NCBI GenBank assembly: GCA_004347965.1
Contig: QNVF01000009.1
Coordinates: 1 to 37,089 of the forward strand
Direction: 5' to 3'
Origin: Candidatus Nezhaarchaeota archaeon WYZ-LMO8
Lineage (GTDB): Archaea; Thermoproteota; Methanomethylicia; Nezhaarchaeales; WYZ-LMO8
Length of the DNA stretch: 37,089 bases
Shown: positions 21,001-24,000 of the stretch, one piece after another
How positions within the stretch are numbered: position 1 is the first letter of the stretch
How the letters are laid out: every line of letters begins with the position of its first letter
Position numbers: made by a program

Positions 21001-24000
21001 GCCGTTAGTTAAATCTATCTACCTCCATATAAGCAATATAATCAGCTTAGAGAGTTGTGGTGACTCTCGTTGTGCGGAATTTTCGGCTGTACGTCGTTGA
21101 AGGAAGGGGTGTCAAAGCTCATTTACTCCTCGCTTAAGAGGTTAGAATACAGAGGATACGATTCTGTAGGTTTAGCTACAATATGTAATGGACATATCTT
21201 CTTGAAGAAGGATCAAGGGAAGGTAGAGGAAGTAGAGAGAAGATTAAGTCTTAGTGCATTACCTGGAAGGTGTGGGATAGGACATACTCGCTGGGCCACG
21301 CATGGAGCTCCCTCCAAGGAGAATGCACATCCTCTGACGGACTGTGAAGGCAAGGTGGCTGTGGCTCATAACGGCATCATCGAGAACTATTTAGAGTTGC
21401 GTAGCAAGCTAGGGGATTCAGGGCATAAGTTACGTTCTAGAACTGATAGCGAAATAATAGCGCACTTAATTGAGGAACTCCTCAATAAAGGTCTTACACT
21501 AGAAGAGGCTGTTAGGCAAGCAACATTAACGTTAAGGGGGTCATACGCCTTTGCAGTCATCTCGCCACTATGTGAAGATAAGATCGTTTGCGTCAGAATG
21601 GAAAGCCCATTAGTCATAGGTCTCTCACGAGACTATACCTGTCTCTCATCCGATATACCAGCCCTTCCTCCAGATGTGGAGAGCATTATAGTGATGAATG
21701 ATGGGGAGCTTGCTGTACTTACTCCTCACTCCATCGTCATTAGGGACTTGGAGTCTAATCAACAGCTACCACTTAGGATAGTGGCTAAAGAGAGCGTGAC
21801 GTGCCTAGCCGATCGAGGCGGCTTTACTCACTACATGATCAAAGAGATATTTGAGCAACCTCAAGCAGCTCTTAACGTTATCAATGCTCCTCGCTACTAC
21901 ATAGTTAAATTAGCTGAAGAGCTTGTTAAGTCTGATAGGGTTTACTTAATTGGTTGTGGAACATCATATCATGCATGTTTATTTGGCTCCTACGTCCTAC
22001 GCTCAATAGCTGATATTGACGCTCAACCAGTCATCGCATCAGAATTTAGCGAAAGCCACGTCAAGTTGGGGAAGGATGTAGCCATCCTTGCTATATCACA
22101 ATCAGGAGAGACGGCTGATGTACTACAAGTCCTGAGATCTTACGTGAACAAAGATGTTAAACTTCTAGCACTAACCAACGTTATGGGGTCCTCGATAACA
22201 AGGCTTGTATCTTCGTATGTTGGACTCTATGCTGGTCCAGAAATAGGTGTAGCAGCCACTAAAACGTTTATTGCAGAACTTTTAATGCTCACCAGAATAA
22301 GCATAGAAGTAGCTAGAATTAAGGGTGTAAATGTTGATCTCATCTCAGGTGTCGAGAGTATCCTAAGGTCTTCACCAAAGCTGATAGAGAGATCTCTCAC
22401 GCTTAATGAGCCCTTAGCCAAGAGTTTATCCGTTTACTTATCCTTAAAGAATAGTGCCTTCTTCTTAGCAAGAGGAGTAAACATAGTTACAGCCCTTGAG
22501 GGAGCTTTAAAGCTAAAGGAGATAAGCTATATTCACGCTGAAGGCTATCCTGCAGGAGAATCAAAGCATGGGCCCATAGCTCTCGTTGAAGAAGGTTTTC
22601 CATGCATCTTCGTATGTCCTCATGATGAAACTTACTACAAAATACTAGGCAACGTAATGGAGATGAAGGCTAGAGGAGCCTTTGTAATTTCATGCGTCGA
22701 GGAAGGTGATAAAGAAGTTAGAGAGACATCAGATAGGATCTTCGTTCTTCCGAAGATCGAAACTAAGCTTTTAACACCTATACTGCACGTAGTACCGCTT
22801 CAGCTCCTCGCTTATTACACAGCTATTGCTCGAGGTTACGACCCCGATAAACCTCGAAACCTCGCCAAGTCCGTTACAGTCCCTTAGATCTTCTAAGATC
22901 TATGGTATCGAAGATGTCAGGCCCCGTGCTTATTATCGTTACGGGCACCTTCAATGTATTCTCTATCTCCTCTATGAACTTCTTAGCTTCACGAGGTAGC
23001 TTATCGTAATCCCTAATCTTTGAAGCTGTAGGGAACAATGTATCTACCCTTGTAAGAGCTATTTGAGTTGCACTATTAGCTAGAACTGCTCTTCTGGCTA
23101 AATCAAAGTTGAAGGGCGCTACCCTTCTCCTTCTTCCAGTTACGGTAGCAACCTCTATAAGCCCTCGCTTTTCGGCCTCCTCCTCTGAGAGCTCACCGAG
23201 AAGCGGTCCTCCACCAACTCTAGTTACATAGGACTTGAAGACGACGATCACTTCATCAACCATCTTTGGCCCTATACCCACCTCGCTGCAGATAGCTGAT
23301 GCAGTCGTATCTCGACTGGTGACGTATGGATAAGTCCCATGATAAAGGGAGAGGTAGTATCCTTGAGTTCCTTCAAGTAATACGTTGTGACCTTGCTGAT
23401 ACGTGTTCCACAATATCATAAGGACGTCGTCTAAATATTCCTCTAACTCCTTCACATCACGAGCAAGCTTAGCCACTCTTCTCACTCTATCAGCCATAGC
23501 TGCTCCAACTCCTTGTCCTGTTGAGCCTATCTTAGAGATCAAGTAAGCATCTTCTCTCTCCTTCTTCACGTGCTCGTCTTCGATTATGGATGCTTGAGGA
23601 TCTATCTTAAGCCTGTCCTTGGCTTTCGTTAGCTCTATCTCTTTCATTAAGACGTCTATCCTAATATTGGCTCCAGCCGCTATGCAGAGTATCGCATTGG
23701 GGTTTACGAACCCGCAAGGTATCATCCTCAACTTGTACTCTACACCATTATAAGTTACAGTATGACCTGCATTGACTGATCCAGTTCTTACGGCTACTCG
23801 AACATCGTCTCTTAATGATAGGTAGGCACAAATTTTTCCTTTTAGGGGGCTAACACCTTTCCCTCGTCTCCAAAGAAGCCTCCAACAACTACTGTTAGCA
23901 AGCCTCTAACCCCCAATAGGGTTTTAGAACTTCTTCGCAGACCTCACTTATCACTCTTAATCCTTCTGCTCTCACTTTATTGGTTGAAGAGGTTTCGGCT

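Follow-up and report, generated by a model that had tools for sequence, protein, structure and literature searches.

How does Candidatus Nezhaarchaeota archaeon WYZ-LMO8, a hot-spring archaeon, make adenylosuccinate synthetase when the codons for the P-loop of its purA gene are broken by 17 nt? We examined a 37,089 nt stretch of its genome (contig QNVF01000009.1, positions 1 to 37,089; hereafter the window), in which these 17 nt lie at 23858..23842 of the minus strand. As read from sequence, they are likely to be a coding-region intron of purA, of the archaeal bulge-helix-bulge (BHB) type, with a probability of roughly 85%. This reading is supported by canonical bulge-helix-bulge geometry, a known cut rule, compensatory changes in the stems, the mix of frame classes among relatives, constraint on the exon codons, the single copy of the gene, the enzymes encoded by the genome and sister inserts in other genes. 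A BHB-type intron had already been proposed in the first-pass annotation of the locus, and every comparative test that we ran supported it.

The interrupted purA reading frame

The gene starts with a TTG at 23901, which overlaps the stop codon of an upstream deacetylase-family gene. The frame opened by this TTG reads LLTVVVGGFFGDEGKVLAP and ends at a stop codon at 23844-23842. Exon 1 (23859..23901) comprises the start, 14 codons (LLTVVVGGFFGDEG) and the first base of a split Lys codon. The 17 nt follow, and exon 2 (22874..23841) begins with the last two bases of that codon. The second frame runs from 23839 (GKICAYL...) for 321 aa to a stop codon at 22874-22876. Its product matches Pfam PF00709 (2.7e-68), with the profile match beginning at profile position 12, base 23842. 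Excision of the 17 nt brings A (23859) next to AA (23841-23840), giving a Lys codon, the sequence GDEGKGKI and a frame of 336 codons. Re-reading the minus-strand frames thus confirms the earlier claim of a 17 nt insert at 23842-23858, after about 14 codons, whose removal restores GDEGKGK. The mechanically called ORF (22874..23731) is, as had been stated, 285 aa long and lacks the N-terminus, so that the P-loop is left out.

Occurrence of the insert among relatives

The purA site is visible in 55 of 62 genomes of the class, and 34 of the 55 carry an insert at the same place. All ten genomes of the window's own family (f1, Ca. Nezhaarchaeales) have one of 16-18 nt, as do 24 of 26 genomes of a second family of the class (f5), where the length is 18-30 nt; there is none in the 19 genomes of seven other families. 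The first-pass annotation had the f1 inserts right, but had put those of f5 at 22-30 nt in only six genomes. The insert was also present in eight of eight family-like metagenome contigs, its sequence differing between copies. An insert-free, family-like purA, a possible cDNA, was sought in these contigs and found at none of the eight loci. Given its occurrence in the 34 genomes and the eight contigs, with varying sequences, the insert is neither a chance nor an assembly effect. The two families are not sisters, the phase of the insert differs between them by one base, and it is precisely absent from two f5 genomes. Gene transfer between the two families was rejected, as each is monophyletic in the purA tree and a well-supported branch lies between them.

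The codons next to the insert are under constraint. Among the ten genomes of the window's family, the last nine codons of exon 1 vary at 0/0/7 columns by codon position 1/2/3, and the corresponding counts for exon 2 are 3/2/7. These figures bear on the idea that purA is dead, or that an N-terminally truncated protein is made from an internal start, the insert being a tolerated lesion. The automatic ORF of 285 aa without a P-loop would agree with this idea and, as the assembly is 93% complete, a second purA copy in unassembled sequence is formally conceivable. However, a lesion would have to last in 34 genomes of two families while every exon-1 codon was kept. A search of the genome detected purA at a single locus, and the remainder of the gene is without an internal stop in the 30 class loci compared, the flagged stops falling outside the aligned gene. 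We consider a dead or truncated purA extremely unlikely.

The inserts are 16, 17, 18, 22, 28 or 30 nt long. All three frame classes are thus represented, and each of the 13 in-frame inserts contains an in-frame stop, so no single frameshift rule fits.

Geometry of the bulge-helix-bulge motif

Read along the minus strand, the motif begins with AGGG (23864-23861; feature 23861..23864), exon bases that form the 5′ strand of a central 4 bp helix with partners at 23844-23847. A first bulge, AAA (23858..23860), contains the predicted cut 23859/23858. It is followed by the inner hairpin GGU-GUUA-GCC (23848..23857), with a 4 nt loop, and by CCCU (23844..23847), intron bases that form the 3′ strand of the helix. 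A second bulge, AAA (23841..23843), contains the predicted cut 23842/23841. The helix (AGGG/CCCT in DNA letters) and the two AAA bulges are as first described. The inner helix had been given as 2 bp; it has three pairs when a U-G pair is counted. The lack of an outer helix, also remarked on before, holds. The bases flanking the motif, 5′ of AGGG on one side and 3′ of the second bulge on the other, form no pairs with each other, so the strict hBHBh′ form is absent and the motif is of the relaxed BHB form.

Two 3 nt bulges on opposite strands with a 4 bp helix between them occur at 34 of 34 insert-bearing loci. The helix has four pairs at 33 of these (the outer pair being G-U at two) and three pairs at one. 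Within the window's family, the outer pair of AGGG/CCCU is kept in nine of ten genomes and the other three pairs in all ten; in the exception, G002, an A-C mismatch takes the place of the outer pair. The cells of the alignment are paired in 98.6% of cases in f1, and the f5 central helix is 100% paired. An inner helix of 3 to 9 bp is present at all 34 loci. Its third pair in the window's family is C-G in eight genomes, U-A in one and U-G in one.

The stems covary in f5. There, 91.5% of cells are paired vs 77.5% in shuffles, and in five pairs both members have changed. None of 500 shuffles attained the covariation score of 0.297, and every slid register scores lower. The stems of two more f5 genomes, AACAGC/GCUGUU and GAUGGUUGC/GCGACCAUC, are quite unlike the others. 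Covariation in the window's own family was not significant, the observed score being reached by 100 of 500 shuffles, because the helices there hardly vary.

The cbf5 intron is described as being cut between the second and third bulge residues in the excerpted text of PMC2738675. Applied to the purA inserts, this rule gives GDEGKGK at 34 of 34 loci. The third base of the 3′ bulge is A at all 34, as the Lys codon requires. The 3′ bulge is AGA, ACA or ATA at 3 of 10 f1 and 21 of 24 f5 loci, and at these a Lys codon results only if the cut falls after bulge base 2 or 3. The earlier caution that the boundary can slide within a repeated AAAGG is correct for this window alone (AAA(A)GG), and lapses when relatives are included, where the AGA bulge settles the boundary.

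The same repeat bears on a reading in which the mRNA keeps the insert and ribosomes recode across it, either by a -1 frameshift at G GGA AAG or by a hop, like that of gene 60, that leaves the Lys codon and lands on the downstream AAA. X_XXY_YYZ is the slippery pattern, and G_GGA_AAG fits it. The insert can be read through in the -1 frame, a hairpin follows the slippery site, and the AAAGG at both borders supplies matched take-off and landing Lys codons in this window. A -1 shift would, however, add six residues to the P-loop. The relatives would need three mechanisms, since 16 nt calls for +1 and 17 nt for -1, while the 18 and 30 nt inserts are in frame but all contain a stop. A shift in one direction at a conserved slippery sequence would not serve all relatives. 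Matching take-off and landing codons, as in T4 gene 60 bypassing, are likewise not shared by them: at 3 of 10 f1 and 21 of 24 f5 loci, a triplet other than a Lys codon precedes the second Gly codon. Neither a frameshift nor a hop accounts for a constant 4 bp helix and 3 nt bulges amid changing stems. Recoding is thus an exceedingly improbable account of the insert.

We also rejected a self-splicing group I or II intron or another Rfam family. The insert is only 17 nt, there was no Rfam match in 23700-24000 at E up to 1, and none near purA at gathering scores.

Other predicted mini-introns and the splicing machinery

The first-pass annotation had counted the purA insert as one of a set. A strict scan (a vectorised scan followed by filters) recovered inserts of the same kind in cbf5, hypD, an IF-2B-family gene, rps5, aIF2-gamma and aIF5B, and Pfam matches run on across all six. 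The pyrG gene, also in the window, has two mini-introns that are kept in ten of ten family genomes. With the purA intron, the protein genes of this genome would contain at least nine such mini-introns, as read from their sequences. Nine is a lower bound because the middle filter of the scan lost purA itself. Since aIF2-gamma, aIF5B and rps5 are essential translation genes with the same kind of insert, genes interrupted in this way cannot all be dead, which is a further point against a lesion in purA.

Two genes with EndA domains (PF01974) are located on contigs C12 (around 27651-27908) and C2 (around 24757-25020). For one, the best matches are deposited tRNA-splicing endonuclease chains (3p1z_B, 1e-49). 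The best match of the other is the EndA-like half of 5x89_A, and it also matches further chains, which we take to be structural subunits. Together they encode a two-subunit splicing endonuclease, with subunit roles that we infer. An RtcB gene is found on contig C10 (4.7e-181, 601 bits). ARAGORN placed introns in 15 of 39 tRNA genes, with a range of 11-54 nt when doubtful calls are set aside; several are just 11-13 nt.

These enzymes are relevant to how the purA insert might leave the RNA. A nuclease and ligase other than EndA and RtcB could remove it, or removal could be partial and act as a switch. The absent outer helix would suit this, and so would the folding results. RNAalifold and RNAfold gave other pairings without the central helix, and the minimum-energy fold joins AGGG to an upstream U-rich run. 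The folding energy is unremarkable (z = 0.28; 119 of 200 shuffles fold equally well), so thermodynamics favours a fold other than the motif. Against this, the geometry and cut position in purA are exactly those of EndA substrates, and no other known system fits removal of the insert. According to the excerpt of PMC5829648 consulted, relaxed (non-canonical) introns are cleaved only by two-subunit and epsilon-type EndA, and the host encodes the two-subunit type. Removal by other enzymes, or as a partial switch, is very unlikely.

RNA runs

Of five RNA runs, only X1 shared part of the stretch (0.20 of sampled words). Read mapping gave no reads for X2 and X3 and 19 for X4, none of them in the purA bins. 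X1 yielded 59 contigs from relatives. Their mean depth in the bin 23339-24005 is 3.13, which is compatible with an unspliced contig across the site. The X1 contigs have no joint or deletion at 23842-23858, and none demonstrably spans the purA intron. One joint was seen in pyrG, from 29568 to 29607. It skips 38 nt and has seven other letters between, and its arithmetic is that expected if the 31 nt second pyrG intron were absent. We discounted it as a spliced product, as the seven letters occur at the exon junction in 0 of 10 family genomes and the joint has just 22 letters on its shorter side; another organism is its probable source.

Proposed splicing and its implications

We infer the following steps for the purA pre-mRNA. 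The last exon-1 bases, AGGG, would pair with CCCU at the 3′ end of the intron, forming a helix flanked by two 3 nt bulges and stacked on the short intron hairpin. The two-subunit EndA would cut each bulge between bases 2 and 3, and RtcB would ligate the exons. The split Lys codon would thereby be rebuilt, giving an mRNA for a 336 aa adenylosuccinate synthetase with its GDEGKGK P-loop intact. The predicted peptide across the exon junction is ...GDEGKGKICAYL. Without splicing, translation would give no more than a peptide of 19 residues.

If these inserts are spliced in this way, mRNA splicing by tRNA machinery would no longer be a one-gene curiosity. The lineage would need it for purA, pyrG, two initiation-factor GTPases, a ribosomal protein and more. 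Gene callers shorten intron-bearing genes or label them pseudogenes, so purine and pyrimidine synthesis could wrongly be scored as incomplete in metabolic reconstructions. The hot-spring archaea concerned include some methanogen relatives. The distribution of the purA insert would also offer a clean case in which to study how archaeal introns are gained, slide by one base and are precisely lost.

Many of the motifs that are split bind nucleotides. They include the P-loop of purA, the N-terminus of pyrG, DCPGHE of aIF2-gamma and GxTQHIGA of aIF5B. A bolder proposal is that the class routinely splits essential genes at their most conserved motifs, and that this placement is not accidental and is no neutral relic, but a regulatory layer tied to nucleotide state. 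Ligation by RtcB needs GTP; splicing would therefore make the production of GTP-using enzymes and of translation GTPases depend on nucleotide state and, if the proposal were true, serve as a layer of control over them. We regard it as unlikely.

Comparison with known systems

The purA motif resembles the BHB introns of archaeal tRNAs, strict (hBHBh′) and relaxed, in its 4 bp helix, its two 3 nt bulges, its size range and the enzymes presumed to act on it. Unlike in tRNA introns, the host RNA is an mRNA with no tRNA body to provide an outer helix, and the exon side of the motif is bound by the codons Glu-Gly-Lys. AGGG could thus take up no compensatory change that left Glu-Gly intact.

In eukaryotes, the splicing of HAC1 and XBP1 mRNA by IRE1 and RtcB is a stress-regulated switch. 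Like these coding mRNAs, that of purA would be rid of a short insert that changes the frame, through an endonuclease and RtcB-type ligation, with no spliceosome. The nuclease and the RNA motif are different, and the stress regulation belongs to HAC1 and XBP1.

The HVO_1309 intron of Haloferax volcanii, as described in the part of PMC7714728 consulted, is a target of EndA that sits in an mRNA rather than in tRNA or rRNA, as is predicted for purA. It lies in a 5′ UTR, an untranslated leader, whereas the purA intron lies inside the reading frame and breaks it, so that splicing is needed to make the protein. Besides this intron, the same part of that 2020 work names the one in the cbf5 mRNA as the only other BHB intron reported from archaea. 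Our search of full-text literature found no report of a BHB intron in purA, Nezhaarchaeales or Methanomethylicia.

The closest parallel is the cbf5 pre-mRNA intron of Crenarchaeota (Watanabe 2002; Yoshinari 2006; Yokobori 2009; PMC2738675, cited from excerpts). It too is a short coding-region intron with an "unconventional" BHB motif. A hetero-oligomeric EndA cleaves it at the bulge position that is also predicted for purA. Lineage-specific loss and confusion with frameshifts by annotators are common to both, and the cbf5 gene of this very genome also has such an insert. The purA intron differs from that of cbf5 in its gene and in its lineage, Ca. Nezhaarchaeales together with f5. It is further set apart by a site inside P-loop codons and a length of 16-18 nt in f1, its splicing being predicted here from sequence.

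The purA Gene and Its Insert

The adenylosuccinate synthetase gene (purA) lies on the minus strand and starts at a TTG (23901), which is preceded by GAGG and overlapped by the stop of an upstream deacetylase-family gene. From 23901 the first frame reads LLTVVVGGFFGDEGKVLAP and ends at a stop at 23844-23842. The second frame, from 23839, reads GKICAYL... for 321 residues to a stop at 22874-22876 (minus strand) and is an adenylosuccinate synthetase (Pfam PF00709, 2.7e-68). In a genome-wide search with the purA family, the match opens at profile position 12 of 416, on base 23842. 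When the 17 nt at 23858..23842 are deleted, A(23859) and AA(23841-23840) together form a Lys codon, and the product is a 336-codon gene with GDEGKGKI; the P-loop is thus regained as the first-pass annotation had claimed, and its 285-aa called ORF is the one to be expected from a gene caller.

The site has the geometry of a bulge-helix-bulge (BHB) element without an outer helix. On the minus strand, AGGG (23864-61) pairs with CCCU (23847-44) as the central helix. The 5′ bulge (23860-58) and the 3′ bulge (23843-41) are both AAA. The inner hairpin, GGU GUUA GCC (23857-48), was initially described as 2 bp, but has 3 bp (G-C, G-C, U-G) around a 4-nt loop once the U-G pair is counted. Free-energy folding did not favor the motif at this site, as expected for a 4-bp helix recognized by protein, and gives no support. 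An Rfam search returned no match at the insert.

In public RNA data (one run with part of the region, and the runs of another study) nothing was placed across 23842-23858. The bin holding these positions is covered in part, and with such partial depth it is conceivable that the data contain a contig across the site from purA mRNA left unspliced.

Distribution of the Insert

The P-loop codons of purA were inspected wherever they could be found among the 62 genomes of the class (62 species, 10 of them in f1, the family of this genome). The region was unseen in seven: G039, G051, G052, G053, G054 and G058, where the query had no purA match, and G034, whose purA is a C-terminal fragment only. All 10 f1 loci carry an insert (17 nt in seven, 16 nt in two, 18 nt in one), as do 24 of the 26 visible loci in a second family, f5 (18 nt in three, 22 nt in two, 28 nt in ten, 30 nt in nine). 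None was found at the 19 visible sites of f2, f3, f4, f6, f7, f8, and f9. The first-pass range of 16-18 nt in ten f1 loci stands; its f5 figure, 22-30 nt in six genomes, has to be replaced by 18-30 nt in 24.

A scan outside the class, with one genome per species, found the insert in 0/39 non-f1 loci, which include a few class members seen again; one further locus lacked the region. Among metagenome contigs it was present in 8/8 f1-like loci and in 0/32 others, with three more loci lacking the region. The nearest public purA genes (79-83% identity) are all in metagenome-assembled genomes, recorded as Candidatus Nezhaarchaeales, Nezhaarchaeota, Methanomethylicota or Nitrososphaerota archaeon. 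A motif pattern search of the 62 genomes gave three additional forward matches outside purA, and the reversed control pattern gave none.

Evidence for Removal as an Intron

A -1 frameshift across a retained insert looks tempting in this window, where G GGA AAG fits the slippery frameshift pattern and the -1 frame is open across the insert. However, it would add six residues inside the P-loop, and the relatives would need a +1 shift (16, 22, and 28 nt), a -1 shift (17 nt), or stop read-through (18 and 30 nt). In each of the 13 inserts that keep the frame (among loci L010, L026, L033, L098-L110, L114) there is an in-frame stop, usually UAG in or beside the hairpin loop, and it may have been retained so that translation of unspliced mRNA ends there. 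A ribosome hop between matched Lys codons fails at 24 loci, where the landing triplet is not Lys. Decay of purA is contradicted by its being single-copy in the genome and by the constraint on codon positions to either side of the insert: for positions 1, 2 and 3, the variable columns number 0/0/7 over the final nine codons of exon 1, and 3/2/7 over the seven full codons that open exon 2.

Removal as a BHB intron is the reading we favor, at a probability of roughly 0.85. For cbf5 introns, cleavage is predicted between the second and third bulge residues (PMC2738675). This rule, applied to purA, regains GDEGKGK in 34/34 loci. The 3′ bulge reads AGA, ACA or ATA in 3/10 f1 and 21/24 f5 loci, which give a Lys codon only if the cut follows bulge base 2 or 3, and the rule is therefore a real test rather than a tautology. 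The central helix has all four of its pairs in 33/34 loci, with G-U as the outer one in two; in the remaining genome, G002, an A-C mismatch takes the outer position.

Taken alone, covariation in f1 proves little. The helices are nearly invariant (98.6% of cells paired), and the one pair changed on both sides was matched by 100/500 shuffles. In f5, 91.5% of cells are paired vs. 77.5% in shuffles, five pairs are changed on both sides, and the covariation score of 0.297 (vs. 0.114) was reached in 0/500 shuffles and in none of the slid registers. Two f5 genomes found later have wholly different stems, AACAGC/GCUGUU and GAUGGUUGC/GCGACCAUC.

Origin of the Insert

The f1 intron follows base 1 of the Lys codon (helix AGGG/CCCU) and the f5 intron follows base 2 (helix GGGG/CCCC or CCCU), a difference that reads as a one-base slide. 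Among 38 purA proteins placed in a quick maximum-likelihood tree, those of f1 make up a single clade (support 100). Four f5 rows form another (99), with the intron-less f9 as its sister (97), and a branch with support 96 parts f5 and f9 from f1 and the other families. There was no sign in the tree of purA transfer between f1 and f5. At least two changes are required. The insert was either gained twice, at nearly the same site, or gained once long ago, with a slide of one base and three or more losses. At their shortest, the f5 forms (GGGG AAA GGC-loop-GCC CCCC AAA) are closely like the f1 form, and on this sequence likeness we lean towards a common origin. Two f5 genomes (G036 and G022; loci L037 and L038) have an uninterrupted GDEGKGK, although genus-mates of each have the insert, which suggests two independent precise losses.

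Presumed Splicing Machinery

Two genes in the genome belong to PF01974, the endonuclease catalytic-domain family. The 185-aa product best matches 3p1z_B (1.1e-49), then 3ajv_B, 2zyz_B, and 2cv8_A, all deposited as tRNA-splicing endonuclease. The 178-aa product best matches residues 15-172 of 5x89_A ("EndA-like protein,tRNA-splicing endonuclease"), the half without a match to the 185-aa protein. Its weaker matches are NEQ261, 3p1z_A, 3ajv_A, and Sen54 chains, which we take to be structural subunits, and the genome's EndA is therefore read as a two-subunit enzyme. Non-canonical introns are described as cleaved only by the two-subunit and epsilon types of EndA, in a passage of PMC5829648. RtcB is also present (4.7e-181). 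ARAGORN called 39 tRNA genes, some of them doubtful; 15 have introns, several only 11-13 nt, so BHB introns this short are routine in the cell.

The window also holds an archaeal RNase P RNA (35534-35823, plus strand) and an archaeal 16S rRNA gene, of which the first 937 positions (36130-37089, plus strand) are present before it runs off the window end. The minus-strand ORFs over the rRNA are spurious.

Other Probable Mini-Introns in the Genome

The CTP synthase gene pyrG (29395-31082, plus strand) has two inserts, at ~29519-29537 (19 nt) and ~29571-29601 (31 nt). Each is at ACCC-AUA within Pro-Tyr codons, and a middle exon of 13 codons lies between them; exon 1 covers CTP_synth_N profile positions 1-40, and the main ORF runs from position 54. 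Both are present in 10/10 family genomes, with compensatory stem changes. A contig from the RNA library X1 joins 29568 to 29607 in frame, with 7 other letters between, at the length expected for pyrG without the 31-nt insert. We rejected it as spliced pyrG; the 7 letters are unmatched in all 10 family genomes, and the contig is probably from another organism. An 834-aa ORF (31079-33583, minus strand) carries aldehyde:ferredoxin oxidoreductase domains and an OMP-decarboxylase domain in one frame, and is either a fusion of an unusual kind or a read-through of two genes.

Genome-wide, a strict structural scan reduced 37,610 motifs to 3,432 whose removal would fuse open frames, and these to 9 with a strong hairpin. 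Six of the nine are in conserved genes with junctions backed by Pfam; one of the other three was discarded as a gene junction. The six are in cbf5 (C1 76656-76635, minus, 22 nt; DKCLD in the left flank and TruB_N, from profile position 17, in the right), hypD (C11 16130-16109, minus, 22 nt; right flank only, from position 29), an IF-2B-family gene (C35 6124-6150, plus, 27 nt; positions 2-114, then 117-280), rps5 (C72 142-170, plus, 29 nt; right flank only, from position 17), aIF2-gamma (C77 23751-23782, plus, 32 nt; GTP_EFTU 4-80, then 85-187), and aIF5B (C77 21331-21363, plus, 33 nt; GTP_EFTU 4-30, a weak match at E 0.0017 under the family cut-off, then 60-183). All six lie within highly conserved peptide motifs, e.g., GHGGTL|DP, THC|NAG, DCPGHE|M, and GAM|TQHIGA. 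With purA and the two in pyrG, the genome has at least nine introns, a lower bound because the purA hairpin is itself too short for the scan filter. The purA insert, called the shortest of its set in the first-pass annotation, is also the shortest of these nine.

Relation to Known Introns

As a passage in a 2020 paper puts it, only the Crenarchaeota cbf5 mRNA intron had been reported in archaea besides the described 5′-UTR intron (PMC7714728). The 2009 cbf5 paper mentions other protein-gene introns as predicted and unconfirmed (PMC2738675). Our full-text literature search, with most subscription journals outside it, found no purA intron and no protein-gene introns in these lineages. The set of inserts around purA is more surprising than the purA insert itself which, given the cbf5 precedent and with none reported for purA, we take to be a further case of the known BHB mRNA introns.
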